From contig CBDBHB010000006.1 in NCBI GenBank assembly GCA_965205505.1, positions 416,001 to 480,000 of the forward strand: a stretch of DNA of 64,000 bases, in the 5' to 3' direction. Shown piece by piece: positions 2,510-59,412 of the stretch; positions within the stretch are counted from its first letter, which is position 1; each line of letters starts with the position of its first letter. A program made the position numbers and the translations under genes. Below the pieces are notes generated by a model. That model worked only from the letters and a program-made list of their open reading frames with translations, was not told the DNA's origin and made no database searches. The stretch comes from Acidobacteriota bacterium. GTDB lineage: Bacteria; Acidobacteriota; UBA890; WLXD01.

Positions 2510-2630
2510 TAACGGCGAGGATCGCCTCCGTGGCGCCCCAGCCGCGTGTCGTCGGCGAGATATACCTCGCCCAAGCCACCGTTGCCGAGCAATGCGGTCA
2601 GCTCGTAGGGTCCGGGTAGGGTACCGATAG
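2510..2630 (-). pseudogene. Ser/Thr protein kinase N-terminal remnant
   Basis: The minus strand reads GTLPGPYELTALLGNGGLGEVYLADDTRLGR (kinase subdomain I), then degenerates before the VAIK motif. Confidence 0.7.
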
Positions 2631-2688
2631 GTGAGTAAGGCCCGCGCGGCTATCATGGCGCGCGGACCCATACGAAGGAGGCGACCCG

Positions 2689-6788: not shown

Positions 6789-7095
6789 GTGTCCGAGGCC
6801 GCCGTACGATTCGACGATATCCACAAGAGCTACGGCGAGACCGTCGCGCTGTGCGGCGTGTCGTTCGAGGCTCGTTCTGGCGAGGCGTTCGGGCTACTGG
6901 GTCCCCAACGGTGCCGGCAAGACCAGCCTGATCGGGGTGCCAGTCTGGGAGCTGGCGCTGGCGCCGGGAATTCTGATCATCTCGACCTGGCTGGCGCTCA
7001 AGCTCGGGGCGCGGCTGTTTCGCATCGGGCTGCTGGCGCTCGGTAGCCGTCCGAAGCTGAACGAAATCTGGCGTCAGGCGCGCCTATCTAGATGA
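6789..7095 (+). pseudogene. Deleted ABC transporter operon remnant (ATPase N-terminus joined to permease C-terminus)
   Basis: IHKSYGETVAL..VSF..GEAFGLLGP/NGAGKT has a +1 shift in Walker A. It is followed directly by a NatB/YhaP-like permease tail (ARLFRIGLLALGSRPKLNEIWR). Confidence 0.75.
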
Positions 7096-7188
7096 GATGA
7101 GAAGGCCAACCTCCTGAACGCAGTAGCCTGACGGCTCTGCAAACGTTTCTTCAAACGTAACGGGCTCGAAGCCCAAGGAGGTTGGCCG

Positions 7189-8234: not shown

Positions 8235-8480
8235 ACTAACCCGCAACCAGGAGGTCGGTAGGGCGACGCGACCCAACGGTTATCGATCTGACCGCCCGGT
8301 CCGGGCGACTGCGAAGGTCACTACGAGCTTCGAGCTCGGCAGCTAGATTGCAGCGCCTCGAATCGGGACGGACCCCAGAATGCACCGGACGACCTGAATC
8401 CTCGTCCACCAGAGTGCGAATAGGAGCATGGCGTGCAGATCGATTCTTCGCTGGCCACCACATTGCCCTTGACCGAACTA
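8235..8480 (+). ncRNA. Candidate seekRNA/bridge RNA in the IS1111 3' non-coding region
   Basis: The position is typical of IS1111. Short segments flanking hairpins match the reconstructed target and donor junctions. Confidence 0.55.
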
Positions 8481-8494
8481 GGCCTTCTCATAGA

Positions 8495-8770
8495 AGTGGC
8501 CTGTAGCAGATGATCGTTGCCTATCGCAGATGGGATTTGCGGGTGAGATCAAGGCGCGGCGAGGAAGGCGATGCAGAGGGCATCGTCGACGAGGCGCAAC
8601 GCCGATATCGCCCGCAACTGCCCATCTGTCCGGAGGATGGCGGCGAAATCGGCCCGTCTGCGGCGTTGCTCCTCCTCCAAGATGGGCAAACATCGTCTCG
8701 TCGTCGCGCCTGGCATCCGGACCCATTTCGCCACCACGATACGCAACGATCATCTGTTACAGACCACTAG
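8495..8770. repeat. ~278-bp palindromic MITE/REPIN-like element, copy 1 (left tip split by the IS)
   Basis: 34-bp terminal arms match at 31/34 once CT 7088-7089 is rejoined. CTAG ends and two internal hairpins. Confidence 0.8.
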
Positions 8771-14019: not shown

Positions 14020-14361
14020 ATGAGCGGCCACAGCCCGGAAGAGATCCAGCAGGAAGTGCGTAAGTACTTCATGGTCTTCGGCGCCCTGGCAGTGCTGACG
14101 GCGGTGACCGTCGCGGTCAGCTACCTCGACCTGACGTCCGGTTTGGCGGTAACCCTGGCGATGATTATCGCCACCGTCAAGGGGTCGCTGGTTGCCGGTT
14201 ACTTCATGCACCTGCTCGACGAGAAGAAGCTCATATACAGCATCCTGTTGTTGACCCTCATGTTCTTCATCGTGCTGATGGGCCTGCCGGCGGGGACCAT
14301 AGCCGACACGACGGGCGAACCGATCCACGCAGCCGCACCGACGTCCCCGGCGGAGCATTGA
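14020..14361 (+). CDS. ctaF: Cytochrome c oxidase subunit IV
   Basis: 3 TM helices, KGSLVAGYFMHL motif. Confidence 0.88.
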   Translation: MSGHSPEEIQQEVRKYFMVFGALAVLTAVTVAVSYLDLTSGLAVTLAMIIATVKGSLVAGYFMHLLDEKKLIYSILLLTLMFFIVLMGLPAGTIADTTGEPIHAAAPTSPAEH

Positions 14362-14362
14362 G

Positions 14363-14566
14363 ATGTCGTTGAAGTCGTTTCACGTGGTGTTCATCTGTGC
14401 TTCGATCGTCCTCTGCTTCATGGTCGGCGCCTGGGCACTCCAGCAGTATCGACTCTCCGACGAGACCGGGCACCTGTGGTTGGCGGTGGTGTTCTACGCG
14501 AGCGGCGTAGCCCTGGTGGCCTACGGCCTACGGTTCGTACGCAAGATCCGGGAGCTGGGAATCTGA
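14363..14566 (+). CDS. Small 2-TM membrane protein in the cox operon
   Basis: Tightly packed with its neighbours, hydrophobic, begins MSLKSFHVVFI. Confidence 0.7.
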   Translation: MSLKSFHVVFICASIVLCFMVGAWALQQYRLSDETGHLWLAVVFYASGVALVAYGLRFVRKIRELGI

Positions 14567-14829
14567 TGCTTAGCCGGGTGGCTTCGATCGTGATACTGAC
14601 CGCCTCGGCGGCGCTCGTTCCGGCCGTCGCCGAGGCGTGCCCGGTCTGTTATGGCGATATCGGCGGTCCGGCGGCGCGCGGCATCAACAACGGAATCCTG
14701 TCGATGCTGGCCGTGGTCGGCGTCGTTCAGATCGGCTTCGTAATGCTGTTCGTGGGCATGTGGCGCCGCGGCAAGCTGCTGCGCGAGCGTAAGGAGAGCT
14801 TCAAGGTGATTGACGGAGGCGTGCGATAA
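14566..14829 (+). CDS. Small exported/membrane protein with CPVC motif
   Basis: ATG overlaps the upstream TGA. Signal peptide ends AEA, followed by CPVCYG and one TM helix. Confidence 0.7.
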   Translation: MLSRVASIVILTASAALVPAVAEACPVCYGDIGGPAARGINNGILSMLAVVGVVQIGFVMLFVGMWRRGKLLRERKESFKVIDGGVR

Positions 14830-27578: not shown

Positions 27579-28166
27579 TCAGTCGCCGAGTCGGCTGTCG
27601 AGCCGCAACCAATGCGACGGTACGCCCAGGCGGCGCGCCTCCGCTCGCAGGGCACTTTCCAGGGCACGCCAGGCTCCTAGCTCCCGGCGATTCGCTGTCA
27701 GGCGGGCGGAGCCGTATCCGCTGCCTGCTCCGGGGCGGCTGCGTGTACGCTGCTGCCCAGCTTCCAGGCTCGAGATCTGCTCGCGCAGCCAAGCCATCTT
27801 CTCCTTCCAGTAAGCGCGGTCAGCCGGATCGAGATAGAAGCTCTCGGGCTGAGGCGCAGACGAGGCGATCGGGCTTCGTCGCTCGTGAACGCGCGTCGCG
27901 GGTCGCCGCGCCGGATTGCCATCAGCGGGTCGGGCGTTGATCGTGCGGGGCACAGACCCCGGAGAGCGACCGTCGTCGCGCCGGATCTGGCGCACGAGGT
28001 CGGCCGACATCGCCACCTCGACGCCGTAGGCTCGAAAAACCACCTTGCCGTTCTCGATGCGCGCATCCTCGACCTGCAGGACACGGCCGTTCGCAAGCCA
28101 GACCGTGTCGGCGGCGGCCGGTACGGTCACACTGGCGACGACCAGAACGAGGAGGAAGGTTCGCAT
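27579..28166 (-). CDS. Secreted hypothetical protein
   Basis: Signal peptide, DTVWLANGR, C-terminal EARRLGVPSHWLR. Confidence 0.65.
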   Translation of the reverse strand: MRTFLLVLVVASVTVPAAADTVWLANGRVLQVEDARIENGKVVFRAYGVEVAMSADLVRQIRRDDGRSPGSVPRTINARPADGNPARRPATRVHERRSPIASSAPQPESFYLDPADRAYWKEKMAWLREQISSLEAGQQRTRSRPGAGSGYGSARLTANRRELGAWRALESALRAEARRLGVPSHWLRLDSRLGD

Positions 28167-28304
28167 GCCGGCAACCTTGCACCGGCGGATGCCGCGCCGT
28201 CTAGTGTGCTGAGTCAGGAATCCGTTGCATATTGCTGGGCCGAGATGGGAGCAAGCTCAAGGCGCGATGAGGAAACGCCCGCCGCCCCCGGGTACACTCG
28301 TGGC

Positions 28305-29924
28305 ATGCGCTTGCACTACGTTCGCCACCTGCCTGCCGTGGGTCTCGGCAACATACGGCCCTGGGCGCTACGGTGTGGCTGGGAGATAACCGAGACGCGA
28401 CCCTACGCCGGGGAGAGCTTCCCTGGCCTCGACGGCATCGACCTGCTCATCGTGTTGGGTGGCCCGATGGGAGCCTGCGACGAGCACGAGCACGCCTGGC
28501 TACTGACGGAGCTCGACTTCGTGGAGCGTGCCATCGAAGCCGGCACGAACGTCCTGGGAATTTGTCTCGGCGGCCAGATAGTCGCCCGCGCTCTTGGGGC
28601 ACGGGTGGTGCGCCATCGCCATCCCGAGCTCGGATGGCACGTGATCGAGCCGACCGTCGAAGGCAGCATGGACGGGCGCCTAGCGCCCTTCTTTGCCCCC
28701 GAGCTGGCCGTGATGCAGTGGCACTTCGACACATTCGATCTGCCTCGCGGCGCCGTTCACCTGGCCCGGAACGAGGCGTGCGAGAACCAGGCCTTCAGCT
28801 GGGGCGCCAACGTTCTCGGGCTGCAATTTCACCCTGAGATGACGCTTCAAGTTGTCGCCGATGTCTTGAAGCGCTACAACCCGCTGCCGGACGGAGAGTT
28901 CGTGACGAGGGCCGACGAGATGCTCTACGCGGCACGCTTCGCCACCTTGGCGGCAGCCAACGGCAGTTTTCTCGATGGCATGACCGGGCGGGTACGTGGC
29001 GAAGGTGACGTGGCGTCGGCGCCAGCTCACGCCAGCGGAGCGGCACCTAGCGCGGACGTACATCTCGTCGACGGCACGTACGAGCTGTTCCGGCATTTCT
29101 ACGCCTTGCCGCGAAGCCAGGACGGCGCGGGCTTGGAGGTCGGCGCAGTTCGAGGCGTGCTGGCCTCCATGCTCGGATTGCTACGTGACGGCGCGACGCA
29201 CATCGGCGTGGCAACGGACCATGTGATCGAGTCGTTTCGCAACGAGATGTGGGATGGCTACAAGCGCGGGGATGGCATCGATCCCGAGCTACTGGGGCAA
29301 TTCGAACCGCTCGAGCAGGCATTGGAGGCAATGGGCATCGTGGTGTGGCCGATGCGCAAGTACGAGGCGGACGACGCGCTCGCTTCCGCCGCTGCGTGCC
29401 TCACATCCGACAGCTCAGTGCGCCGCGTGCTTATCTGTACGCCCGACAAGGACCTGGCGCAGTGTGTGGTCGACGATCGCGTGGTGCAGCTGGATCGTCG
29501 GGCGCGGACGGTGCGGGGCGTAGCCGGTGTGCTGGAGAAATTCGGTGTGCTACCGGGCTCGATCCCCGACTACTTGGCGCTGGTCGGCGATAGTGCCGAC
29601 GGTTATCCGGGGGTGCGACGCTGGGGCGCAAAATCCAGCTCGACGCTCCTGCATCAATATGTTTATCTCGAGGCGATCCCGCGTCAGGCCGAGGCCTGGA
29701 AGGTCCAGGTAAGAGGAGCCCACAAACTGGCCGCCACGCTCGCCGAGAGCTGGGACGACGTGCTCTTGTTTCGTGACCTGGCGACGCTGCGCACCGACGC
29801 GATCGTTGTATCGGCCGAGGCCCTGCGATGGGAGGGTCCGACGGACCGGTTCGCGGCGCTGGCTGACGATCTCAGGTCTCCGCAGCTCGCTGAACAAGCG
29901 GCGAAGCTGGCCGCCATTCGGTGA
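28305..29924 (+). CDS. Class I glutamine amidotransferase fused to 5'-3' exonuclease (FEN/Xni-like)
   Basis: GATase motifs GGPMG, GICLGGQ and QFHPE, then in frame VHLVDGTYELFR, EADD, TPDKD and LVGDSADGYPGV. Confidence 0.85.
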   Translation: MRLHYVRHLPAVGLGNIRPWALRCGWEITETRPYAGESFPGLDGIDLLIVLGGPMGACDEHEHAWLLTELDFVERAIEAGTNVLGICLGGQIVARALGARVVRHRHPELGWHVIEPTVEGSMDGRLAPFFAPELAVMQWHFDTFDLPRGAVHLARNEACENQAFSWGANVLGLQFHPEMTLQVVADVLKRYNPLPDGEFVTRADEMLYAARFATLAAANGSFLDGMTGRVRGEGDVASAPAHASGAAPSADVHLVDGTYELFRHFYALPRSQDGAGLEVGAVRGVLASMLGLLRDGATHIGVATDHVIESFRNEMWDGYKRGDGIDPELLGQFEPLEQALEAMGIVVWPMRKYEADDALASAAACLTSDSSVRRVLICTPDKDLAQCVVDDRVVQLDRRARTVRGVAGVLEKFGVLPGSIPDYLALVGDSADGYPGVRRWGAKSSSTLLHQYVYLEAIPRQAEAWKVQVRGAHKLAATLAESWDDVLLFRDLATLRTDAIVVSAEALRWEGPTDRFAALADDLRSPQLAEQAAKLAAIR

Positions 29925-42150: not shown

Positions 42151-43419
42151 CTATACCTTCAGCGTCACCCAGCGCACGAGCTCGTTGATCAGCAGCTTCC
42201 CGTCCCAGGGAGACTCCTGCACGTTCATCAACCCCGGGCGCACGCAACGGGCGGCTCCCGCGAGGGTGGCGGCCTCGGCGAACTCGCGTGCCTCGCCGTC
42301 GTCGCCGAAGGCTATGCCGACCGTCTGCACGCGGGGATTGATCAGCGGTACCACCAGACGCCACGAATCCACCGCCGTGAGAAACACCGTGCGCGACTGG
42401 ATAGGTTCCTTGAGCGACACGTCGGCGTCCATGCACACGGTCCAGTTGGCGCCATCGCGCGATGCGATCATGTCTCGCCGCTCATCGAGCGCCCACTCGG
42501 CGCGAGTATTGGCGATCTGCACGGTTGTGTAGGCATCGAGGGCCGATTTCGGCGGCAGGCGCTCAAGAGCCGCCGCGAAGCGCTCGCCGACATCGCCCAG
42601 GGCGCCGTTCGTTGCCTCGACGAAGATCGTCTGTGGCGAAGAACAGGCACGTTGATCGAAGATGGCAACGTCTCGTACGAACGCGGCGACCACCCGGTCG
42701 AGCGCCGCGGGCTGTTCGAGAAGGGCACCACCGATCAGGCCTATCGAGTATTTCGGACCGAACTCGACGTTCACGCAATGCGGCTGCTGCGGCAACCTAC
42801 GTATCGCCTCGATAGCCGTCTGCCCGCCCCAGGTCACCTTGGCATCGGCCGCCAGCGACATCGCTGTACCCAAGTCGCTTTCGCTGGAGCTGTACCAGAC
42901 CACCGCAAGACAAGCGCACAGATCGGCGCCCGAGAGGCCATCCACCGAGCATCCGGCCAGCACGTCGAGCATTGCGTCGATGCCGCCGGGCTGGGCGTCG
43001 GCCAGCTTCACGAGGCAGACGTTCCTGGCCAACAACGCTGGTACCAGCGCGAAGACCGGCAGCGTGGGCACGTTGCCCGCCATCCACATCGACACCAGGC
43101 CGTGTGGCTTCGCCGCCAGCTGCCGATCGTCCACGTCGACGAAGCCATCGAGCGCCGTTACATGACCACCGAGGTTCAGCACCAGCATCTTCTCGAGATT
43201 TGAGCGCTTGAGCCACGCGGACAGAAACGTCACGCCCTCGAGCCCTCGGGTATGAGGGTCCTCGAGCAGGCGCGAGCCGAAGGCGGCCAGTAGATCAAGC
43301 AACGACGCGGTGGGAACCGCAGCCATCGAGACACGCCGCTGCTGCAGCGCAGCGGTGATCGCCCCCAGATCGCTGAACGATTCGGGAGGCTTGCCGGGGC
43401 GAAAGTAGATGCCGCTCAT
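42151..43419 (-). CDS. LuxC-like acyl-CoA/acyl-protein reductase
   Basis: AGNVP, WGG..AI, FGPKYS and FDQRACSSP (catalytic Cys) motifs. Confidence 0.9.
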   Translation of the reverse strand: MSGIYFRPGKPPESFSDLGAITAALQQRRVSMAAVPTASLLDLLAAFGSRLLEDPHTRGLEGVTFLSAWLKRSNLEKMLVLNLGGHVTALDGFVDVDDRQLAAKPHGLVSMWMAGNVPTLPVFALVPALLARNVCLVKLADAQPGGIDAMLDVLAGCSVDGLSGADLCACLAVVWYSSSESDLGTAMSLAADAKVTWGGQTAIEAIRRLPQQPHCVNVEFGPKYSIGLIGGALLEQPAALDRVVAAFVRDVAIFDQRACSSPQTIFVEATNGALGDVGERFAAALERLPPKSALDAYTTVQIANTRAEWALDERRDMIASRDGANWTVCMDADVSLKEPIQSRTVFLTAVDSWRLVVPLINPRVQTVGIAFGDDGEAREFAEAATLAGAARCVRPGLMNVQESPWDGKLLINELVRWVTLKV

Positions 43420-44564
43420 TCGAGCTGCTTCACTGCAAAGGTATCGCCACAACCCCGCACCGCAACGCGCTCGACACGGCGCGTAAAGCGAAAGTACTGC
43501 CCTGACCGCCCGCACGGGCAGTCGTCTACGCCGACCAGCGTTCCCTGATCTTCAGTGAGGAGAGCTTGGCCCGGATAGCTCGTCGGCAGCACGCTCACCA
43601 CCTCGATGATGCCGGTTTCCCCCGGCGCCACCGGCTCCAGCGTATGAGGCCTGCGGATCACGACATCCGCGAAGGCGGGAGCATGCTTGTTGCCGGCCAC
43701 GCAGTCGACGAAGACCGTGCCTACTTGCTCAACCATGCCGTAGAAATCAAGCACCGCACCGGAGTTCATTCCCAACACGTCGCTGACGCGCTCGTTGAAG
43801 ACAGGCTTCGACACCGCGTCGGCCTCGAGCTTCTTCCAGCCTCCAGAGTGCAACAGCACGGCTTCCGGGGCATCGAAGCGCGCGCCGCGCGCCTCCGCCG
43901 CGCGAACGAACCGCGACCAAACGATGAACGTGAACCCGAAGACGAGTATCGGCTTGTCGCCATGCAGTTGGAAGAATGCTTCGATTGCGTCCCAATCAGG
44001 CATGAGGTCACCGTTGTCTGCCGATCGCAACGCGTAGGTGGTGGAGCTCGCGAAGCTGCCGATTCCGCGGATCGCCGCGCCCCGAGCGGTCAGTACATCG
44101 CCAGCGGCGGCGGCCTCCTCGACGTCGACCACTAGATACGGGCGTCGCCTACCGCCCAACACGTCCTTGAGAATCGATACCAGCGCCCTCGACTGCCGGA
44201 AGGCGGTGGTCTTGTCGATGAAGATACGGCTGGGCTTCTGGCCGGTCGTCGACGACGAGTGCAACTCTCGAACCACCCGTTCCGGCGCGACGGCCGAAAG
44301 TGCGAAACGCTTGAACATGGTGACCGGCAAGGGCGGCACATCGGCAACCCGTGTCCAGTCTGCCGGGCTCCCGCCAAGGCGAGCGAGGAAGCGCGCATAC
44401 GGTGGACAGGCTTCCGCCATCTGCTCGCACAGAGGTCGCAGGATCGCCAGAAGGTCGTGATCCTTATCGGCCTGCTTCGACGAGAACTGATCTCCGGCGA
44501 TCAACGCGGTGATCGCCGTGTCGACCTCGGCGCGGCACGCATCGGACAGCCCTGCGGTGCTCAT
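43416..44564 (-). CDS. LuxE-like acyl-protein synthetase
   Basis: LPVTMFK, SSSTTG, GGWKK, FYGMVEQ, SYPG..LLTED and C-terminal RGC motifs. Confidence 0.9.
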   Translation of the reverse strand: MSTAGLSDACRAEVDTAITALIAGDQFSSKQADKDHDLLAILRPLCEQMAEACPPYARFLARLGGSPADWTRVADVPPLPVTMFKRFALSAVAPERVVRELHSSSTTGQKPSRIFIDKTTAFRQSRALVSILKDVLGGRRRPYLVVDVEEAAAAGDVLTARGAAIRGIGSFASSTTYALRSADNGDLMPDWDAIEAFFQLHGDKPILVFGFTFIVWSRFVRAAEARGARFDAPEAVLLHSGGWKKLEADAVSKPVFNERVSDVLGMNSGAVLDFYGMVEQVGTVFVDCVAGNKHAPAFADVVIRRPHTLEPVAPGETGIIEVVSVLPTSYPGQALLTEDQGTLVGVDDCPCGRSGQYFRFTRRVERVAVRGCGDTFAVKQLE

Positions 44565-46138
44565 GCCTCAGATCCGCAATCACTGGCCGCATCTCGCAGC
44601 TGCGCCTTCAAGACCTTACCGGCGGCGTTCTTCGGAAGGTGATTGGTGAGCTCGACGGTCGTCGGGATCATGTGGTTGGGCAAATGGTCGTGGCAGTGAC
44701 GCACGATCGATCGACCGCTGAGCTCCCCTTCGCGTACGGGCACCACAACCGCCTTGATCGCTTCCCCCCAGATCTCGTCGGGAACGCCGATGACGGCCAC
44801 TTCGACCACCTCTGGCAACGCCGCGATGACCTCCTCGATCTCTGTAGGGCTGACGCGTATCCCCATCGACTTGATGAAGTCACGGGCGCGGTCGACGATG
44901 AAGATGAACCCCTCCGCGTCGACGCGCGCCAGGTCGCCCGTTCGCAGCTTGCCATCGCCGAAGTACTTCTGCGTTCCGGCGACATCGTTCCAATACCCCG
45001 GGCTCACGTTGTCACCCGTGGCGACGATCTCGCCGATTTCGACAGAGCCGGGGCGCACCGGCGAACCATCCTCTTTCAGCACCTCCAAGACGGTCGACGG
45101 CAGGCCGCGGCCGATGGAGCCGAGCTTGTCGTCAAGCCGCTCCGGCGGAAGATAGGACAGCCTCGCGGTGGCCTCCGTCTGGCCGTACATCACGTACAAG
45201 TGCACGTCGGGAAAGGCCTCCCGCATTTCACGTATGAACGGCTCCGGCAATCTTCCACCTGCTTGCTGGAGCCATCGGAGTGCCGGGAAATCGCGCTCCT
45301 TGAAATGGCTTCGGCGTAACAGGATCTGATAGGTCGACGGTACGCCGGCGAGCCCGGTACACCCCTTGGCCTCCATGTCGTCGAGTACCTTCTCCGGAAA
45401 CATGAAAGCGTTGTTGATTACCACCGACGCGCCCGCCGACAGATGTGCATGTAGGACCGACAGACCGTAGCAATAGTGCAGCGGCAGCACCAACATCGCG
45501 CGGTCGGTCGGCACGAGCCCCATGTACTCGACAATGTCGCGCGTGTTGGTGGCGATGTTGCGATGCGTGACCATGACACCCTTCGGCACTCCCGTGGAGC
45601 CGGCCGTGAGAAAAAGGGCCGCGAGAGTGCTCGATGGATCGAACGTGCCCGTCGATTCGACCTCTGCGGCGAGCGCGTCCCCCTCCAAGGGCTGATCGAG
45701 CTCTTCCTCGGACCACAGCTCGACCTCTGCGGCGGCCATGGCCCCGATGAGATCGGCATCTGGCGCCATCCGAGACGATACGAGCATCAGCTGCATGTCG
45801 GTATCGATGGCGATGCGACGAAGTCGCTCGACTGGCAACGTCGTCGGCAAGGGAACAACGCATAGCCCGACGCGTATCGTCGCCAGGTAGGCAACGACGA
45901 AGAAAACGCCGTTCTCGGCCACCAGACCAACACGCGATCCTGGCGCGAGGCGTGGCGCGCGTAGACGCGCCGCCGCCCGGTCAACGCGGCGGCGAAGCTG
46001 CCTGTAGCTGACGTCTTCAGCACCGACCGACAGCACCAGATCGGACGCCTCCCCGGCGGCGAGCAGCTGTGAGGCGACATTATCCTGCGCTCTCTGCGGG
46101 GCAGGTTCGCAGGGGTCGGCAGCCGCGCTCTTGGTCAC
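44561..46138 (-). CDS. AMP-binding acyl-CoA/acyl-ACP ligase
   Basis: TAGSTGVPKG, MYGQTEA, RTGDL and PKNAAGK motifs. Confidence 0.92.
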   Translation of the reverse strand: MTKSAAADPCEPAPQRAQDNVASQLLAAGEASDLVLSVGAEDVSYRQLRRRVDRAAARLRAPRLAPGSRVGLVAENGVFFVVAYLATIRVGLCVVPLPTTLPVERLRRIAIDTDMQLMLVSSRMAPDADLIGAMAAAEVELWSEEELDQPLEGDALAAEVESTGTFDPSSTLAALFLTAGSTGVPKGVMVTHRNIATNTRDIVEYMGLVPTDRAMLVLPLHYCYGLSVLHAHLSAGASVVINNAFMFPEKVLDDMEAKGCTGLAGVPSTYQILLRRSHFKERDFPALRWLQQAGGRLPEPFIREMREAFPDVHLYVMYGQTEATARLSYLPPERLDDKLGSIGRGLPSTVLEVLKEDGSPVRPGSVEIGEIVATGDNVSPGYWNDVAGTQKYFGDGKLRTGDLARVDAEGFIFIVDRARDFIKSMGIRVSPTEIEEVIAALPEVVEVAVIGVPDEIWGEAIKAVVVPVREGELSGRSIVRHCHDHLPNHMIPTTVELTNHLPKNAAGKVLKAQLRDAASDCGSEA

Positions 46139-46410
46139 CCGACCCCCTTGTTCGCCAGGATCTCGAGGATCTTCCGAACGTCGACCATCTCCATGATCTC
46201 GTCGACCTCGAACTCGACTCCGAAGGCGGCTTCCATCGCCGCCACCAGATTCATGTGTCCGATCGAATCCCATTTCCTGACGTCGTCGGGAACGGTGTCC
46301 GGATGGAAGCGGGCGGCATCGTGAGCGAAGGTCTGCTCGAACACCGCCGCCAGTCGCTCAACCAGAGCGCTGTCTTCCACAGGTAGTGAGTCGGCAGGCG
46401 ATCCCGACAT
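46135..46410 (-). CDS. Acyl carrier protein
   Basis: WDSIGHMNLV phosphopantetheine site, acidic. Confidence 0.9.
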   Translation of the reverse strand: MSGSPADSLPVEDSALVERLAAVFEQTFAHDAARFHPDTVPDDVRKWDSIGHMNLVAAMEAAFGVEFEVDEIMEMVDVRKILEILANKGVG

Positions 46411-47126
46411 CAGAGGGCCATGCCGCCATCAACAGAGAACACGGCTCCGGTGACGCCGACGGCGTCGTCTGAGACCAACCAGCTCACCAGGCCGGCTACT
46501 TCGTCGACGCTTTGTAGTTTCCCGAGTGGTACGGCCTTTTCGATCATCGCGAACATGGCTCGACTGGTGAGGTTGGTCTTCACTGCGCCAGGCGCCACCG
46601 CCACGGCCCGGATCCCCGCCGCGGCATATTCGGCGGCGATGCTCCGTGTGTAGTGGATCAAGCCAGCCTTGGACGCTGCGTACACTGATAGCTTCGGCGA
46701 CGCCTTGATGCCGGCGACCGAGGCAATGTTGATAATCAGTCCCGGGGTCTGGCGCTCGCTCATCACCTTCAAAGCCGCGGCGCTGAGGCGAAGGGGCGCC
46801 GCCAGATTGGTCTGCAGTTGGTCACCGATCGTCGCGGCATCGGCATCATGAGCATTCTCAAAACGCATCACCCCGGCGTTGTTGATCAGCACGTCGAGGC
46901 CATCGCGGTCGGCGACGATCGACTCGAGCAGGCAAGCCGCGGCGTCCAGGTCTCGGACGTCGGCCTGGTGATAGCCGACCTTGGCGGCGAGCTCGCTGGA
47001 GCCTTCAGCCCACACTGCCGGCTCGCGCCGGGCGATGACCTCCACCGCGTGACCCTCAGCCGCCAGGCGACGCACTATTGCCAGCCCAATGCCGGAGGAT
47101 CCCCCGGTGACGACAATCTTCTTCAT
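46410..47126 (-). CDS. SDR oxidoreductase (FabG-like)
   Basis: TGGSSGIG, NNAG and YAASK motifs. Confidence 0.92.
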   Translation of the reverse strand: MKKIVVTGGSSGIGLAIVRRLAAEGHAVEVIARREPAVWAEGSSELAAKVGYHQADVRDLDAAACLLESIVADRDGLDVLINNAGVMRFENAHDADAATIGDQLQTNLAAPLRLSAAALKVMSERQTPGLIINIASVAGIKASPKLSVYAASKAGLIHYTRSIAAEYAAAGIRAVAVAPGAVKTNLTSRAMFAMIEKAVPLGKLQSVDEVAGLVSWLVSDDAVGVTGAVFSVDGGMAL

Positions 47127-47160
47127 TGGCTCTCCCCCAAAGAGCCTTCGCCCCCAAATT

Positions 47161-48237
47161 CTATATCACGTCCGGCGGCTTGGGACCCTCCCCCACGGCG
47201 ACCGCAGACGACGAACCCGCAGGCGTAGCACGCGCCTGCGCGGATGTCACATCGCGTAGCCGTACGCCCTCGGCGGCCAAAACCCCGAATCCGAGCAACA
47301 TCGGCGGAACGAACGTCAGCGTGTGAACCAGGAGCGAGTAGCCTAGCGCCTCGCTCTTGGGCACCCCGAAGATGCCCAGTGCGACGATGCAGCCTGCCTG
47401 AAAGGTGCCGACGAAACTGGGCGCCGCCGGGATCATCACAAACACCGCGACCAACGCCGTGGCAACGATGGCAAACCTGAGGACGGGAACGCCGTAGCCG
47501 ACGTCCATGCCCATCGCCAACGCCACGAGCGCGAACGGCGCGGCGAGCGTCGCCCAGACATAGGCGCTGGCCAACAGCAGCGTCAGCAGTTGGCGCAAGT
47601 CCGTCAACGCATGCAGGCCATCGACAAAGGAGTGGACAGAAGCGCCCACAGGGGCGCCGATCCTTTTCGGCAACCGGTCGATGAACCGGTCGAGCCACCG
47701 AAGCGACATGTCCTGAAACAGGATCAGAGCCAGGATCAGCGCCGTCACCAGGCCGGCAACCGCGGCGAGCAACCGTACCGCACCGGCCACCTGAGGACCC
47801 GCGCCTTCCGGGATCGGCACCAACATAATGGCGACAGCCAGCATCGCACCGACGGTCACCAAGTCGAAAACTCGCTCCAACACGACGGTGGCGAACGCTG
47901 TCGAGAACGGCAGCTTCTCTTTCCGCGCGATCGAGTAGGCCTTGACGGCCTCGCCGGCGCGGAGCGGCAGCACGGCGTTGGCGGCGTACCCGACCGCCTG
48001 CGAGGCGAACAGAGTGCGGGTTGCTACCGGCCGCAGATGTGCGAACAGCATCTTCCAGCGCTGCGCCCGAGCGTAGACTGACAACAACGAGACGCCGGCA
48101 ACCAGCCCCAACCACCCGGGTTTCGCGCTCCGCATGGCCCCCCACACCTCCGCCATCAAGACGTCACGGGTGACGACCCAAAGGAACAGTGCGCTCACCG
48201 CAATTCCGACCGCCAGCTGCAGATACCGCTTGTTCAC
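47161..48237 (-). CDS. Lysylphosphatidylglycerol synthase-TM (UPF0104) flippase-like protein
   Basis: RAQRW, NAVLPLRAGE, ERVFD and PAAPSFVG motifs. Confidence 0.88.
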   Translation of the reverse strand: MNKRYLQLAVGIAVSALFLWVVTRDVLMAEVWGAMRSAKPGWLGLVAGVSLLSVYARAQRWKMLFAHLRPVATRTLFASQAVGYAANAVLPLRAGEAVKAYSIARKEKLPFSTAFATVVLERVFDLVTVGAMLAVAIMLVPIPEGAGPQVAGAVRLLAAVAGLVTALILALILFQDMSLRWLDRFIDRLPKRIGAPVGASVHSFVDGLHALTDLRQLLTLLLASAYVWATLAAPFALVALAMGMDVGYGVPVLRFAIVATALVAVFVMIPAAPSFVGTFQAGCIVALGIFGVPKSEALGYSLLVHTLTFVPPMLLGFGVLAAEGVRLRDVTSAQARATPAGSSSAVAVGEGPKPPDVI

Positions 48238-51460: not shown

Positions 51461-51639
51461 GCGCTTGCCTCCGCAAGATCGCCGGGTATCCGCTCTTCAA
51501 GCTACCTTGCAGGACTAAGAATAGCGGCTGCCCGGCACCGGTGCGCGGTTCCCCGCTTTTCCACCATGTTAGATTGCGCAGCTCCAAGTTTCGCGGCCAT
51601 ACTGGTTCGCCGTCTGACAATCTAGGAGCAGCGAGTCTC

Positions 51640-52212
51640 ATGCCCCTCGAAGTCGCGCCGACGGACATCCCCGATGTGCTCTTGATCCGGTCGGAGCTGC
51701 TCCGCGATAGCCGTGGTGGCTTCCTCGAGACCTTCCGGCACTCCGTGCTTGCCGCGCAGGGAGCTGACGTTCGTGTAGCACAGGTCAACGAGTCCATCTC
51801 GGAGGCCAAGGTGCTGCGTGGGTTGCACTATCAGCTAGAGCCAAATGGGCAGGGCAAGCTGGTGCGGGTGTTGCGCGGCGCCGTGTTTGACGTTGCCCTG
51901 GATGTGCGGCGCGGTTCGCCCTGGTTCGGCCAGCACGTCGCGATCGAGCTCAGCGCCGAGAACCGAAGCCTGCTATGGATCCCGCCGGGATTCGCACACG
52001 GATTCTGCGCGCTCGAGGACGACACCCACTTCCTCTACGTGCAAACAGCCGAGTATGCCCCCGAATCGGAAGCTGGAGTCAACGCCTTCGATCCGGCGTT
52101 GGGTCTTCAGTGGCCGTTCCCACGCGACGACGTGATCCTGTCGGACAAGGATCTGGAGCTGCCGTCACTATCGTCCGCCCGCCTGAACTTCGACTATCGT
52201 GCAAGGCCGTGA
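51640..52212 (+). CDS. rmlC: dTDP-4-dehydrorhamnose 3,5-epimerase
   Basis: VLRGLHYQ, QGKLVRV, PPGFAHGF and LSDKD motifs; AGGAG RBS. Confidence 0.95.
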   Translation: MPLEVAPTDIPDVLLIRSELLRDSRGGFLETFRHSVLAAQGADVRVAQVNESISEAKVLRGLHYQLEPNGQGKLVRVLRGAVFDVALDVRRGSPWFGQHVAIELSAENRSLLWIPPGFAHGFCALEDDTHFLYVQTAEYAPESEAGVNAFDPALGLQWPFPRDDVILSDKDLELPSLSSARLNFDYRARP

Positions 52213-52225
52213 TCGCGCTCGCAGG

Positions 52226-52504
52226 CTAGCAGGCCGTGGTGAAAGTGTGGTGGGTCTGGTTACGGCGAGTTGGGGCCAGATGCAAGGCGGCCTGACACTG
52301 GCGATGACCTAGCCATCGTCGAGGAAGGCCAACGTCGCAGATGGCCCCAAATCGCCGTAACCCTTCGGGCGACAGGGGGTTGCGCGCGTATCCTGCGTCG
52401 TTCCTCGTCAACGATGGGGTAACCATCGCCTCCTCCTCTCTCCTTGCCTGCACTTCGCAAGACCCTGTCGCCAGACCCACCACACTTTCACCACGGCCTG
52501 CTAG
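52226..52504. repeat. 279-bp palindromic MITE/REPIN-like element, copy 2
   Basis: Perfect 34-bp terminal inverted repeat CTAGCAGGCCGTGGTGAAAGTGTGGTGGGTCTGG. Internal motifs are shared with 8495-8770. Confidence 0.85.
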
Positions 52505-52519
52505 GCACGTTCCCCACGT

Positions 52520-53281
52520 CTACATCATCTTGATCGGCCCGTCCGCGCGCCCGTTGATGAACTGCTGGATGACCGCGTTGTCGCTGGCCTGGATCTGCTG
52601 CGGAGTGCCGGCTTCCTCGATCTTGCCCTCATGAAGCATCGCGATTCGATCGGCGATCTTGTATGCCGACACCATGTCGTGCGTGATGGTCAGCGAAGTC
52701 GCGTTAAGCCGCGTGTTGAGGTCGACGATCAGATCGTTGATCTGGTCGGCAAGAATAGGGTCGAGGCCGCTCGTGGGCTCATCGTAGAGAATGATCTCTG
52801 GCTCGAGCGCAATGGCCCGAGCCAGCCCCACGCGCTTCTTCATGCCGCCCGAAAGCTCGGCAGGCACCTTGCCCTCGATGCCCTTGAGACCCACCCAGCG
52901 GAGCACCTCACGCACCCGCTCCTGCACGCGCGCCTCGGGCCAGTCGCGTTGTTGGCGTAGCGCGAAAGCAACATTGTCGCCGACGTTCATCGAGTCAAAC
53001 AGTGCGGCGTACTGAAAGAGCATGCCCATGCGTCGGCGGAGCCTGGAGAGAGCATCACGTCCGAGCCCGGGAACCGACGACCCATCGACAACCAAGTCGC
53101 CGTGATCGGGTGCCAGCAAACCGATCACGTGCTTGAGCAGCACGCTCTTGCCGGTACCCGAGCTGCCGATAATCACCAGCGATTCGCCGCGGGCAACGTC
53201 GAGATCGACACCGCGCAATACATGCAGTTCGCCGAAGCTCTTGTGCAGATCGCTGATACGGATGAATGACTGTTCGCTCAC
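52520..53281 (-). CDS. mlaF: Mla-type ABC ATPase
   Basis: GSSGTGKS, LFQYAALFDS, LSGGMKKR and YDEPTSGLDP motifs. Confidence 0.93.
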   Translation of the reverse strand: MSEQSFIRISDLHKSFGELHVLRGVDLDVARGESLVIIGSSGTGKSVLLKHVIGLLAPDHGDLVVDGSSVPGLGRDALSRLRRRMGMLFQYAALFDSMNVGDNVAFALRQQRDWPEARVQERVREVLRWVGLKGIEGKVPAELSGGMKKRVGLARAIALEPEIILYDEPTSGLDPILADQINDLIVDLNTRLNATSLTITHDMVSAYKIADRIAMLHEGKIEEAGTPQQIQASDNAVIQQFINGRADGPIKMM

Positions 53282-54063
53282 ATGTCCCATAGAACGAGTA
53301 ACGCTTTGGTGAGAAAGAAGTCGGAGACCAAGATGGCCATGCTGCTGGTCACGACGGCGCTGGTGGTGGCCCTGCCGACACCCGCGGCTCCGCCGCTGGC
53401 GCCGAAGCCACGTATACAGGAAAAAATGGCGATCATGACGCCGAAGATCGACGCTTTGATCAGCCCAGAGACGACATCGTCGACGGTAATGAAGGCGAAG
53501 CTGGCCTCCCAGTAGGCAACCGGGCGCGCGTCGTTCATATACACGGAGACCACGTAGCCACCCAAGATGCCCAAGAGGTCGCCGATCACCACGACCACGG
53601 GCAACATCACCGCCCCCGCGATGACGCGCGGCACGACGAGGTACTTCACCGGGTCGGTCGCCATCGCTTCCATCGCGTCGATCTGCTCCGTGACGCGCAT
53701 CGTGCCAATCTCCGCCGCCATCGCGGCGCCGGCCCGGCCGGCGACCATCAATGAGCCCAGCACCGGGATGAGCTCGCGCGTCATCGCCAAGGCAACCGAG
53801 AAAGCGACCAGTGTCGTGGCACCGAACTGCTCGAAGCCTTCCCAGATCTGCAAGGCGAACACGGCACCCGAGAACACGGCGGTAACGATGATGACCGGCA
53901 AGGAACGATTGCCGAGCTCGACCATCTGCTCGAACCAATTCCGCACGTACAGCGGTCGACGAGTCAGGCTGGTAAGCGAGTGCCATAGCAGCAGCGACGC
54001 TTCCCCCGCCGATTCGAGGAACCCGATCGCGAACCGACCGATGCCGGCCACCAATCGGCTCAT
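53278..54063 (-). CDS. mlaE: Mla-type ABC permease
   Basis: RELIPV, AEIGTMRVTEQIDA and GVGRATTSAVV motifs. Confidence 0.95.
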   Translation of the reverse strand: MSRLVAGIGRFAIGFLESAGEASLLLWHSLTSLTRRPLYVRNWFEQMVELGNRSLPVIIVTAVFSGAVFALQIWEGFEQFGATTLVAFSVALAMTRELIPVLGSLMVAGRAGAAMAAEIGTMRVTEQIDAMEAMATDPVKYLVVPRVIAGAVMLPVVVVIGDLLGILGGYVVSVYMNDARPVAYWEASFAFITVDDVVSGLIKASIFGVMIAIFSCIRGFGASGGAAGVGRATTSAVVTSSMAILVSDFFLTKALLVLWDM

Positions 54064-55415
54064 CGCTGCGTCTCCGCTGCGTCGTTGACGGCGGATGTCG
54101 GGTAGCGTCGCGGCACTCTAGAGCCGATACGGCTGAGAATCTCGTGCGGGATGGTCTCCGCCCATTCCGAAACTTCCTCGACGCTGATGCACGCCTGCCT
54201 GGCGGTTTCCATAGAGACAGGCCGCGCCTTGACGGTGGCCTCGTCGTCGTCCCCATCGGCGGCCGCAACGGCGATCGACAGGGTGTCAGAATAGCCCGCC
54301 GATTCGGCTTCGGCCTCACTCGTGGAGCCCGCCAAAGGTTCGGTACCACCGAACACGACGACTTCGTCGCCGACCCGTGCCGCAGGCACATCGGTAACAT
54401 CGACGAGGGTGATGTCCATGCTGACCCTGCCGATGATCGGAGCCCGACGGCCACCTATCGAAACCCAGCCGCGGTTGCCGAGGGCGCGTGGAAGACCGTC
54501 GTGGTACCCCAGGGGCAATGCGGCTACCCGAGTCGCTTTATAGGTGGTGGCGGTCATCCCGTATCCCACCGTGACCCCCTTCGGAAGGTCGCGGATCGCC
54601 ATGATGCCGGTAACCAGCCGCATCGCCGGACGTAGCCCGGCAATACCCCTTCCCGGGTTGAGTGAGCCTCCGTAGATCGCCAGGCCCGGTCGTACGCCGG
54701 TAAATGTTGGGCCACGCCATGACCCCGCGTGGTGCATCAGACCGGCGCTATTCGCCAGGGTGCGATGCGCCGGCAGTATGTCGTCCTGTTCGAGCACTGC
54801 ACAGACCTGATCGAAGATGTCGACCTGCTGCCGCACGAAGTCCGTTCCTGGATCAGCGTCGGCGAAGCTGTCGCTGCTGGCGAGATTCGAGAAAAGCCCG
54901 TCGAACGACAAGGTCGGCTCGTCGGCCAGCGCCCGCGCCAGGTGGGTGACCTGATCTGGCACGATGCCGAGCCGCCCCATACCGGTGTCGACCTTGAGAT
55001 GGACCGAGGCCGGTCCGATTCCGAGCTCTCGAGCCGTGTCCGCCAGTCGAGCTCCGACGGTGGCATCCTGGATACCGGCGGCGAGGCCATACTCCACGAC
55101 CATTCGAAAGGCATCTTCCGATGCTGAGACGGCGAGCCCGGCCATGACCAGAACAGGCACTTCGATGCCCGCCTGCCGCAACTGGCGACCTTCACAAGCG
55201 GTCGCCACGCACAACCCGGCGACGCGTTCGGCGCAGAGCGCGCTGGCGACAGCCACGGCTCCATGTCCGTACGCGTCGGCCTTGACCACAGGCCAGATGT
55301 CGATGGCGCCGACCTTGTCGCGCAGGCGCCGCAAGTTGTGCACGCAGGCGCCGAGATCGATCTCCGCCACGGTCGGTCGGCAGGAGCTTGGCATCGGCGA
55401 TGAAGCTTCGCGCAT
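54060..55415 (-). CDS. alr: Alanine racemase
   Basis: VVKADAYGHG, KVDTGMGRLG, VGYG and GRVSMD motifs; acidic insert near the C-terminus. Confidence 0.95.
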   Translation of the reverse strand: MREASSPMPSSCRPTVAEIDLGACVHNLRRLRDKVGAIDIWPVVKADAYGHGAVAVASALCAERVAGLCVATACEGRQLRQAGIEVPVLVMAGLAVSASEDAFRMVVEYGLAAGIQDATVGARLADTARELGIGPASVHLKVDTGMGRLGIVPDQVTHLARALADEPTLSFDGLFSNLASSDSFADADPGTDFVRQQVDIFDQVCAVLEQDDILPAHRTLANSAGLMHHAGSWRGPTFTGVRPGLAIYGGSLNPGRGIAGLRPAMRLVTGIMAIRDLPKGVTVGYGMTATTYKATRVAALPLGYHDGLPRALGNRGWVSIGGRRAPIIGRVSMDITLVDVTDVPAARVGDEVVVFGGTEPLAGSTSEAEAESAGYSDTLSIAVAAADGDDDEATVKARPVSMETARQACISVEEVSEWAETIPHEILSRIGSRVPRRYPTSAVNDAAETQR

Positions 55416-57104: not shown

Positions 57105-57503
57105 TCAATAGGGCTTATCGGAGCGTGCCGCGGGCCCGTCCGGCTCCACCGGAACCCAGTAGCTCTCAGCATCGGGATCTCGTCGCATGTCCAGGAGGTC
57201 CTTTCCTGACAGCCGCAGCAAGAAGCCCATCGGGGTCATCACAACGAAGAACATCAGCGTCAAGATCAGCGTCGTCATGACAACCTGCAGAAGGCGCGCC
57301 AACGCCATCCAGACACGCTCGATCGGTGCCAGAACCGGCGGCAGGATCAGCGCGGCAACGAGGAACGCCGCGCTCACGTAGAGCAGATACGGGCCCGCCG
57401 GCCGCTCTCTCCACAACAGCAACGACGCCAGCAGCGCAAACGCCACCGCCATCACGATTCCGAACTTACGCAGCCGCTGCGCGTCAGTTTGCTGCTTCTT
57501 CAT
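57105..57503 (-). CDS. SxtJ family membrane protein
   Basis: LRKFG, WM..A..L, TPMG..R..GKD and SYW motifs. Confidence 0.88.
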   Translation of the reverse strand: MKKQQTDAQRLRKFGIVMAVAFALLASLLLWRERPAGPYLLYVSAAFLVAALILPPVLAPIERVWMALARLLQVVMTTLILTLMFFVVMTPMGFLLRLSGKDLLDMRRDPDAESYWVPVEPDGPAARSDKPY

Positions 57504-57515
57504 GGCCTCGATTTG

Positions 57516-59336
57516 CTAATCCAGATCGTAAATGTCGCGCCAGTCCACATCGTCACCGAGCGGCGGCTGGTCGGACTTCATCAGGATGCAATCTTGCAGG
57601 ACGAGCACGTCCATTTCCGTTCGCATGAAGCAGAGATAGGCATCCTCGGGGGTGCATACGATCGGCTCGCCGCGAACGTTGAACGACGTGTTGACTATGA
57701 TGCCGTAGCCGGTGCGCTCCTTGAACGCTTCGATCAGCCGGCGATACTGCGGATGATCACGCGCATCGACCGTCTGCACACGGGCAGAGTAGTCGACGTG
57801 TGTCACCGCTGGGATGTCGGAACGCGGTACGTTCAACTTGCTGATACCGAATAATCGTGCCTGCTCCTCGGTCATCGCGACCCGACGCTCCTCTCGCACC
57901 GGGGCAACCAGCAACATGTAGGGCGATGGCCGATCGAGGTCGAAGTACTCCGAAACGTCTTCGACCAGGCAGCTGGGTGCGAACGGGCGGAACGACTCGC
58001 GGTACTTGATCTTGAGGTTGAGCTTGCGCTGCATTTCCCGATCGCGGGAGTCGCCGATGATGCTTCGCGCGCCCAGCGCGCGCGGCCCGAACTCCATGCG
58101 TCCGCTGAACCAGCCGACCACGTTTCCCTTAGACAGCGAGTCAGCGGTGACATCGGGGATGGTCGTCTCGGTGTGACGCTCGTAGGGGTAGCGCTGCTCG
58201 AGAAGCCACTGTTCGATCTCGTCACCGCTCCACGACGGCCCCAGGTAGGACCCGCTCTGCAGATCGCGTCCATCGGCAGCGGTGTAGCGCGGCACGGCGT
58301 GAACCTGGTGGGCTACGAAGAGCGCCGCGCCCAAGGCGCCGCCGGCGTCGCCTGCCGCGGGCTGGATCCAGACATCGTCGAAGATGCCGGCTCGCAGGAT
58401 CTTACCGTTGGCGACGCAGTTCAAAGCCACGCCGCCGGCCATGACCAGATTACGCTCACCAGTCTGTGTGCGGACGTGCCTGGCCATCCGCAGCATCACC
58501 TCCTCACAAACCTCCTGGACCGACCGCGCCAGGTCCATCTCGCGCTGAGTGAGCTCACTCTCTGGCTGCCGCGGAGGCGCGCCGAACAGCTCGTGGAACG
58601 CCTCCGAGGTCATGGTCAGACCCTGGCAGTAGTTGAAGTACTTCATGTCGAGCCGAAAGGAACCGTCTGCACGCAGATCCATCAGCTCGTCGAGGATCAA
58701 GTCTACGTACTTGGGCTCGCCGTACGGTGCGAGGCCCATGACCTTGTACTCACCGGAGTTCACTCGGAAGCCGGTGTAGTAGGTGAACGCGGTGTACAGC
58801 AGGCCCAGGCTGTGCGGGAACCTGAGCTCGGCGGCAAGCTCGATGCTGTTGTCTACCCCAGCGCCCCAGGAGGCGGTCGCCCACTCGCCTACCCCGTCGA
58901 TCGTGAGGATCGCAGCCGACTCGAAAGGCGAGGGGAAGAACGCCGAGGCGGCGTGTGACTGGTGATGCTCCGGGTAGAGCATATCGCCCTCGAAACCCGT
59001 CTCCCGGGCGATCAGCTCTCCCATCCAGAGCTTCTGCTTGAGCCAGAGCGGCATGGCCTTCAGAAACGAGTTGAGGCCCTGCGGGGCGAATGCTAGGTAG
59101 GTCTCCAGGAGACGCTCGAACTTGGCCCACGGCTTGTCATAGAAGGCGACCGCGTCGAGATCCGACGCCTCGATATCGCCGGTTCTCAGACAGTACTCGA
59201 CAGCGTGGGCGGGAAAACGGAAGTCGTGCTTCTTGCGCGTGAAGCGTTCCTCTTGGGCCGCCGCCACGATGGTGTCGTCGCGCACCAAGCACGCCGCGGA
59301 GTCGTGGTAGAAAGCCGAGATCCCGAGGATGTTCAT
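57516..59336 (-). CDS. NodU/CmcH-family O-carbamoyltransferase
   Basis: GISAFYHDSAA, HHQSHAASAF, GEYKVMGLAPYG, FGPRALG and NTSFN motifs. Confidence 0.95.
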   Translation of the reverse strand: MNILGISAFYHDSAACLVRDDTIVAAAQEERFTRKKHDFRFPAHAVEYCLRTGDIEASDLDAVAFYDKPWAKFERLLETYLAFAPQGLNSFLKAMPLWLKQKLWMGELIARETGFEGDMLYPEHHQSHAASAFFPSPFESAAILTIDGVGEWATASWGAGVDNSIELAAELRFPHSLGLLYTAFTYYTGFRVNSGEYKVMGLAPYGEPKYVDLILDELMDLRADGSFRLDMKYFNYCQGLTMTSEAFHELFGAPPRQPESELTQREMDLARSVQEVCEEVMLRMARHVRTQTGERNLVMAGGVALNCVANGKILRAGIFDDVWIQPAAGDAGGALGAALFVAHQVHAVPRYTAADGRDLQSGSYLGPSWSGDEIEQWLLEQRYPYERHTETTIPDVTADSLSKGNVVGWFSGRMEFGPRALGARSIIGDSRDREMQRKLNLKIKYRESFRPFAPSCLVEDVSEYFDLDRPSPYMLLVAPVREERRVAMTEEQARLFGISKLNVPRSDIPAVTHVDYSARVQTVDARDHPQYRRLIEAFKERTGYGIIVNTSFNVRGEPIVCTPEDAYLCFMRTEMDVLVLQDCILMKSDQPPLGDDVDWRDIYDLD

Positions 59337-59412
59337 CGCGGCACCGTCCACCCTGCGATCAGCGGCCGGTGCAACCGAACCACGGCCTGCTAGGAGCACT
59401 TCGCTTCGCCGC

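Follow-up and report, generated by a model that had tools for sequence, protein, structure and literature searches.

What kind of element is the 279-bp inverted-repeat structure at positions 52226-52504, and what does it share with a second, outwardly different element in the same stretch of DNA (the 64,000 nucleotides analysed here, hereafter the window)? The first of these, copy 2, is a complete MITE-like hairpin element with CTAG at both ends and near-identical copies at unrelated loci. Its terminal inverted repeats of 34 nt (52226-52259 and 52471-52504, both given on the plus strand) are complementary at 34 of 34 positions, and it lies between convergent genes encoding a dTDP-4-dehydrorhamnose 3,5-epimerase (51541-52212, plus strand) and an ABC ATPase (52520-54454, minus strand); size, arms, ends and position can be read directly and are as the initial annotation had reported them. 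Pairing of the arms continues to 47 nt at 87%, and the left and right halves of the interior each fold on themselves, through 52258-52283/52337-52362 (26 nt, 88%) and 52365-52384/52456-52475 (20 nt, 85%), so that the predicted fold is a long stem bearing two hairpins and the element as a whole would be Y-shaped. Folded as RNA, copy 2 reaches -177.9 kcal/mol compared with -105.4 +/- 4.9 for shuffled sequences (z -14.7; 0 of 200 shuffles as good), and folded as DNA it gives a z of -15.7.

The second element, copy 1 (8495-8770; folding z -9.1), represents a sister subfamily and has been interrupted. An IS110-family insertion sequence of about 1.4 kb (7090-8494, plus strand), recognised by its Pfam domains and by reading the junctions, sits in the left terminal CTAG and leaves the first two bases of the element (CT) stranded at 7088-7089. 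The length of 278 bp previously given for copy 1 is correct once the left end is rejoined across the inserted IS and does not apply to the uninterrupted stretch; an intact relative at another locus (L036:2427-2704), 96% identical to copy 1, is 278 bp long and begins CTAGTGGCCTG. Since AG is repeated at both junctions of the insertion sequence, its boundary is ambiguous by 2 bp. It has 11-bp subterminal inverted repeats of its own (7097-7107 and 8481-8491), and its transposase lies in two frames (7189-7611, DEDD_Tnp_IS110, 1.3e-15; 7605-8234, Transposase_20, 3.3e-17), and may be a pseudogene broken by a frameshift, an artefact of sequencing or a case of programmed frameshifting. IS110-family elements habitually target repeated palindromes, and the placement of this one in the CTAG of copy 1 would fit such a habit.

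Which parts do the two copies have in common? Similarity between their arms is undetectable, and blastn joins only the central 137 bp (70.8%, E 1e-9), on opposite strands. Within this centre, the motif CAAGGCG-N10-GGCGATG-N7-CATCGTCGA-N7-CAACG occurs with the same spacing at exactly two places in the window, 52283 and 8550, and in 0 of 100 shuffles, which bears out the initial annotation on this point; its finding that arms and inner stems of the two copies differ yet still pair is also borne out. The annotation went further and proposed conservation at the level of structure, unlike ordinary MITEs, in a family that BLAST would probably miss. That structural insight is right for the comparison between subfamilies and does not carry over to relatives within one, where the arms are among the best-kept parts: in the copy-2 lineage they are 89-94% identical in two relatives (L067, L039) whose whole element is 75-76% identical, so the terminal repeats of this lineage are conserved as in ordinary MITEs. 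The supposed failure of sequence searches was likewise mistaken, given that blastn both links copy 1 to copy 2 and finds at least 16 full-length copies. Judged from the sequences, the two window copies are members of two subfamilies with different arm classes, and what is common to all members is sequence as well as structure, in the form of a near-invariant apical helix and internal loops.

The shared part can be resolved into modules. A degenerate form of the core, GGCGATG-N7-CATCGTYGA-N7-CRACG, has three matches in the window against 0.03 expected, and a covariance model built from relatives, R1, finds exactly four modules there, the next best match scoring 16 bits. Copy 2 contains module A (52266-52356, sense on the plus strand; 74.5 bits, E 3e-21, with R1 scores here and below resting on a structure in which the 3' side of P2 is one column off), a hairpin of about 90 nt made up of P1, P1a, P2, GA-rich loops and P3, followed by the inverted module B (52374-52463, sense on the minus strand; 48.1 bits, E 1e-12; pattern match at 52396-52430, minus strand), in which P2 is degenerate; loss of P2 pairing is a feature of module B of the copy-2 type. 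Copy 1 carries a module A at 8533-8623 (plus strand, R1 80.7 bits) and a diverged module B at 8642-8730 (minus strand, R1 42.2 bits). With four modules, two per element and on opposite strands, each element amounts to a head-to-head pair of about 90-nt modules inside long terminal repeats. The apical helix P3, which in module A of copy 2 occupies 52300-52320 (plus strand), reads GGCGATG-N7-CATCGTC and includes a conserved G.T/G.U wobble.

Evidence that the module is kept as a fold comes from 45 instances from 33 sources, aligned to R1, and hence leaning towards the structure of the model, and counted on the corrected structure. In this alignment 80.8% of stem cells are paired compared with 60.0% in shuffles, and the stem covariation score is 0.491, against 0.150 in shuffles (0 of 500 reach the observed value) and 0.10-0.14 for slid partners, so that the structural alignment does better than shuffled controls, as the structural reading had predicted. 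Double-sided changes are seen at 15 of 15 P1 pairs and 4 of 5 P2 pairs across the 45 modules. P3 (GGCGAUG/CAUCGUC) is 98% paired, with G.U at columns 38/59 in 41 of 45 modules, and compensatory changes in it are rare (L018, L065, and a change from U-A to C-G in Streptomyces). RNAalifold run on a MAFFT alignment recovered P3 alone, because the outer stems are out of register in that alignment. Between P2 and P3 a lone pair, 33/63, covaries (CG 24, GC 11, AU 6) and is flanked by conserved GA and GA, a pattern from which tandem sheared G.A pairs may be inferred; reading this loop as a K-turn was rejected on the alignment, since the covarying pair leaves no 3-nt bulge.

Purines that are conserved without being complementary, beside covarying pairs, indicate that a single strand folds and point away from duplex DNA. 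On the module sense strand G.U exceeds A.C in P1 (54:19) and not in P2 (14:12), a count on per-sequence folds gave little asymmetry outside P3, and in 27 of 31 representatives it is the sense strand that gives the better fold of the two, partly through the fixed P3 wobble. Because the asymmetry of P1 is absent from P2, and there is little of it outside P3 in the per-sequence folds, these data argue only moderately for selection on one single strand, which could equally be RNA or one strand of DNA.

Copy 2 appears to encode no protein of its own. The ORFs within it (85 and 66 aa, both on the minus strand) are not conserved, the sole ATG of module A runs into a stop two codons later, and a small-peptide reading of the element was rejected because the frame is not conserved. 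The 85-aa ORF (52226-52483, minus strand) spans nearly all of copy 2, has its stop in the terminal CTAG and is likely a false gene call. Between 51900 and 52800, which takes in copy 2 and its surroundings, we counted 0 promoter-like and 0 terminator-like sites, and a terminator or promoter role was rejected on these counts.

How widely does the family occur? When species-representative genomes were scanned for the core pattern, at least 79 loci (denoted by L numbers) came up, 11 of which were set aside as chance matches because the flanking motifs were absent; R1 later gave six of these 23-30 bits and missed the rest. Among the matches listed, the left arm of copy 2 is present in 28 of the 79 loci. 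In one Acidobacteriota MAG alone, blastn found the copy-2 type as at least 16 separate full-length elements (L019 and L020 overlap and count as one), 94.2-97.5% identical with arms included and at unrelated intergenic loci. Among the matches listed there are further copies, one of 91.8% identity in the same MAG, others of 91.8% and 90.4% in two other MAGs, and copies of 75-76% in a fourth, and the flanks of all copy-2-type copies listed are unrelated. Of the 22 different full-length copies listed, the window copy included, 18 both begin and end with CTAG, and the four exceptions read CGAG, CTTG, ATAG and ATTG at one end, two of them keeping TA at both ends with the outer base alone differing. 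For copy 1, again among the matches listed, there is a relative of 96% identity, a one-module form of 95%, and others of 84-85% and 70%. Arm classes of the family begin CTAGCAGGCCG, CTAGTGKCCTG, CTAGTACAGCG and CTAGGGTCTTTC.

Derivatives of several kinds accompany the complete elements: 172-bp forms with a single module (L053, L034), an arm standing alone (L068:3192-3226) and, on a Streptomyces plasmid, a module-less 78-bp hairpin of arms alone (L083:2501-2580), which suggests that arms can persist without the core. A chimera at L078:330-720 starts with an arm and module of one subfamily, continues into an arm and module of copy-2 type and closes with the remaining module and arm of the starting subfamily, which suggests recombination between family members. 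Two copies in one MAG (L012 and L073) are 100% identical, have different flanks and both start with CTGG instead of CTAG; this shared start argues that the terminal tetranucleotide travels with the element and speaks against a fresh TA duplication. In the window itself, an exact 15-mer of the outer arm end of copy 2, finishing in CTAG, stands alone at 59379-59393 (plus strand) between the L9 gene (59413-59982, minus strand) and a carbamoyltransferase gene (57516-59396, minus strand); an element since lost may have left it behind, and at a blastn E of 0.05 a chance match is possible. On a Myxococcota contig (L014:2056-2557) three modules, two on the minus and one on the plus strand, lie within 500 bp, denser than the usual pair.

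The core module, including motifs outside the search pattern, extends well beyond the host of the window. It was found in other Acidobacteriota together with Thermoanaerobaculia, in Gemmatimonadota, in Myxococcota and Bradymonadales, in an unclassified proteobacterial MAG, and in Lachnospiraceae and Eubacteriaceae including the cultured Otoolea muris. Bacteroides was left out of the count of host phyla because the contig so binned is 96% identical to copies from another MAG. The Firmicutes unit is a single-module hairpin of 165-166 bp; one genome showed five copies of it, and it is often embedded in clusters made up of other repeats. At four Eubacteriaceae loci (L008, L022, L047, L069; around positions 2000-3200) the 166-bp unit stands in intergenic clusters of 1-1.7 kb composed of several unrelated inverted repeats, mosaics that recall BIME-like clusters. 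When used as a blastn query against plasmids, the Firmicutes unit matched Streptomyces only (6 records), and it had no matches in phages or in 5,426 E. coli genomes. A Streptomyces element in turn retrieved 38 Streptomyces plasmid records, two such plasmid elements scored 52.6 and 36.6 bits with R1, and neither window copy had a blastn match among plasmids.

Termini recur along with the core. Inverted repeats ending in (N)TA(N), mostly CTAG, surround 34 of the 56 modules examined, several of the others lying at contig ends, and they occur in Gemmatimonadota, Bradymonadales, Lachnospiraceae, Eubacteriaceae and other Acidobacteriota, as well as in two Streptomyces plasmid elements, with L081 as a further example. 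Some termini are alike across phyla, with Acidobacteriota CTAGTGTCCTG resembling Lachnospiraceae CTAGTGTACTG and Eubacteriaceae CTAGTACAGCG resembling Bradymonadales ATAGTACAACG. Stem covariation and the conserved GA-rich internal loops and apical helix hold in Acidobacteriota, Gemmatimonadota, Myxococcota/Bradymonadales, Bacillota and Streptomyces, and the aligned modules show some 45 core nucleotides, together with a defined fold, to be kept in at least five phyla. For comparison, 97.4% of prokaryotic MITEs are described as genus-specific (PMC11602168).

The genomic surroundings offered no fixed partner. Flanking genes are diverse and housekeeping in kind, no conserved gene neighbourhood emerged among 122 flanking ORFs, and one of these ORFs has a mobile-element-like domain (IstB-like). 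Crude ORF calls at the 54 loci with two neighbours gave 17 convergent, 27 tandem and 10 divergent arrangements, so that a position between convergent genes was rejected as a general rule, and a hand tally of single-module loci gave 7 sense and 7 antisense to neighbouring transcription. No autonomous element with matching ends was found in the window, the 79 genome loci listed or 4 plasmid loci, and among the 122 flanking ORFs and 44 further window ORFs the window IS110 was the sole transposase. Plasmid matches to the left end of the element alone turned out not to be ISs: one (L082) is a gene end overlapping an element and the other (L083) is the module-less mini-hairpin. All-against-all blastn of the loci listed and the window yielded no filled/empty site pair, and the sole shared gene was that of a 5'-3' exonuclease (window 29055-29912, with L060), in a different synteny.

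Some features of the same DNA are recorded in their own right. In the window one frame (27885-29921) joins glutamine amidotransferase-like and 5'-3' exonuclease domains, either as a fusion or as two genes run together by the ORF call. Its exonuclease part shares 80% DNA identity with L060, in which the exonuclease has a gene to itself and a one-module element precedes that gene. At 42151-48234, a LuxC/LuxE-type acyl-CoA reductase and acyl-protein synthetase stand with an AMP-binding enzyme and lysyl-phosphatidylglycerol-synthase-like membrane proteins, and at 57105-59396 an SxtJ-like small protein adjoins the carbamoyltransferase. A stretch of 766 bp without a long ORF (14064-14829), between cytochrome oxidase genes, contains no module and has no Rfam match.

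Taken together, we consider it likely that copy 2 is one copy of a non-autonomous, non-coding mobile family, that of the TA-bounded hairpin-forming bacterial MITEs. The family combines small size without a protein of its own, terminal inverted repeats and many dispersed similar copies. Movement would proceed by cut-and-paste or copy-in at the TA within CTAG, with the transposase supplied in trans, and an enzyme of the IS630/Tc1-mariner-like type would be the most likely candidate because TA is the best-kept terminal dinucleotide, as has been proposed for RUP. As no filled/empty site pair was found, we infer transposition and target duplication; the IS630-type step in particular stays conditional because neither a partner IS nor an empty site was found and because L012 and L073 share CTGG. 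Under read-through transcription, the long perfect outer duplex would be a substrate for an RNase III-type enzyme, by analogy with what is reported for Correia elements, and the core might conceivably serve as a handle for a conserved protein, be it the enzyme that mobilises the element or a host factor that processes or binds RNA.

Does the family belong to a system already described? At gathering score, Rfam 15 gave 0 matches in the window and 20 loci, and at E values up to 10 there were weak unrelated matches only. No description of the family or its core was found in the literature searched. Knowledge of hairpin MITEs, among them ERIC and Correia, goes back more than 30 years, and we read the present family as an undescribed one within this class of TA/CTAG-bounded hairpin MITEs, unusual for its deeply conserved structured core. 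Integron attC sites have consensus R''/R' core sites, RYYYAAC ... GTTRRRY, which pair at the base of the stem; these boxes were not seen in the aligned modules and arms, and an attC identity was rejected.

Bacterial MITEs of the Correia, ERIC, RUP and YPAL types are characterised in PMC2229807 as shorter than 200 bp, with terminal repeats, TA termini and long stem-loop transcripts. The transposases of Correia/NEMIS, ERIC/IRU, RUP and YPAL are described there and in PMC2759123 as mostly unidentified, RUP alone being tied to one in the former account, through IS630-Spn1; that account also presents MITE movement as lacking experimental support (PMC2229807). RUP of Streptococcus pneumoniae, a TA-targeting MITE with terminal repeats matching an IS630-family element (PMC2229807), is our model for the trans-mobilisation put forward above; the present family differs in that no IS with matching ends was found and in that its conserved part is at the hairpin tip and not at the termini. 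ERIC (also IRU or RU-1, 127 bp) is alike in being small, non-coding, intergenic and multi-copy, with terminal repeats, TA termini and a long hairpin (PMC2229807, PMC2759123). By eye, a 10-mer, GCAAGGCGGC, and an 8-mer, GCCAACGC, of the printed E. coli ERIC consensus recur on the corresponding arms at module junctions of this family. ERIC differs in its apical region, in forming one hairpin and in its AT-richer ends. On a real E. coli K-12 copy, located with the published ERIC primers in the rpsB-tsf spacer (L085:40625-40729), R1 gave 2.3 bits (E 5.8), which is not a detection, and the blastn search of 5,426 E. coli genomes was blank; neither homology with ERIC nor membership of it is supported by these results. 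Short internal motifs of Correia elements may resemble the module junctions. Correia/NEMIS elements are reported to be TA-bounded, with 24-26-bp repeats, about 105-155 bp long, present in hundreds of copies and in long and short variants, to yield hairpin transcripts cut by RNase III and to have no known transposase (PMC2229807, PMC5039591). They differ in being confined to Neisseria and in having an interior that is not an inverted module pair.

An internal core kept across phyla with varying termini runs against the prediction of the transposase-binding model, and simple duplex-DNA transposon ends would not need the signs of single-strand selection. A tentative possibility, which we hold to be rather unlikely, is that the module is an undescribed ancient structured motif, in RNA or in a folded DNA strand, which hairpin MITEs bounded by CTAG/TA have in common across five or more phyla and which acts in cis as the handle of a conserved mobilising or processing machinery.

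REP sequences and REPIN doublets with their RAYT enzymes present another way of arranging the same evidence, in which the module would be a large REP-type hairpin, joined head to head into a doublet and moved by RAYT/TIRYT, an HUH tyrosine transposase whose substrate is hairpin DNA in single-stranded form. Inverted hairpin doublets and singlets are both found here, and a folded single strand is the likely substrate in either system, but the hairpin foot of the aligned modules carries neither GTAG nor an unpaired CGTC tag and the modules lie on opposite strands, unlike IS200/IS605 ends. HUH enzymes read structure, which would suit the conserved wobble and the conserved unpaired bases in a folded single strand, and a mechanism without target duplication would suit the CTGG end common to L012 and L073; set against this, no Y1/HUH domain occurs among 56 window ORFs and 122 flanking ORFs, and no RAYT stands nearby. 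Acidobacteria are described as encoding TIR-flanked tyrosine transposases with repeated TIR families (PMC3733652), although the same source gives REPs as 20-40 bp, a size far exceeded by a module of about 90 nt and perfect outer repeats of 34 bp with CTAG ends. We rejected REP/REPIN membership on the absence of both the tag (as defined in PMC3733652) in the aligned modules and a Y1 (HUH) transposase among the ORFs scanned, and consider this account improbable.

We are quite doubtful, too, that the module is primarily a host-selected structured non-coding RNA, a protein-binding or regulatory unit whose repeat nature is secondary. Such a role could explain why about 45 nucleotides and their fold persist in at least five phyla, why the covariation extends to an isolated pair flanked by conserved G.A pairs, and why the sense strand folds to advantage, with G.U exceeding A.C in P1; it sits poorly with the loss of P2 pairing in module B of the copy-2 type, with the persistence of a module-less derivative, and with such transposon features as sharply defined CTAG ends, solo arms and near-identical copies that number dozens per genome. 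A selfish mobile element is favoured over a host RNA gene because promoter-like and terminator-like sites are absent in and beside copy 2, the orientation tally is 7:7 and the neighbourhood is not conserved; the 7:7 tally lends no support to a cis-acting RNA role.

Finally, the IS110-family insertion placed precisely within copy 1's terminal CTAG, a Streptomyces plasmid element that precedes the transposase gene of an IS110-family IS by about 450 bp, and a two-hairpin shape with internal loops that may superficially recall bridge RNAs might suggest a bridge-RNA-like guide or, mainly, a preferred landing site of IS110. A bridge-RNA region would lie within an IS110/IS1111 element beside the recombinase and have its two guide loops on the same strand. 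We regard this reading as highly improbable, and reject it as far as a bridge-RNA region is concerned, because copy 2 has no recombinase in reach (the sole one in the 64-kb window being at 7189-8234), the subterminal repeats of the IS leave copy 1 outside, relatives of the window IS110 were found by protein and DNA search in none of the 79 loci among the matches listed and an IS110 domain in none of the 122 flanking ORFs, a small ORF-like stretch separates element and IS gene in the Streptomyces case, the two modules lie on opposite strands, and conserved loops with varying stems are the opposite of programmable guide loops.

Returning to the hairpin-MITE reading, these elements matter for the annotation of the genomes that carry them, as they yield spurious ORFs in GC-rich genomes, such as the 85-aa ORF of copy 2, and can donate the stop codon of a real gene through their terminal CTAG, as in L082; they also serve as insertion sites for other ISs. 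Varying termini around a core kept across phyla, including the culturable and genetically tractable Streptomyces, provide a handle on MITE movement. If the core is the part recognised by a protein, pull-downs and genetics in Streptomyces could identify the partner, and if the reading of the module as an ancient motif is true, it would give 'orphan' bacterial MITEs, those never shown to have a transposase, a core in common.
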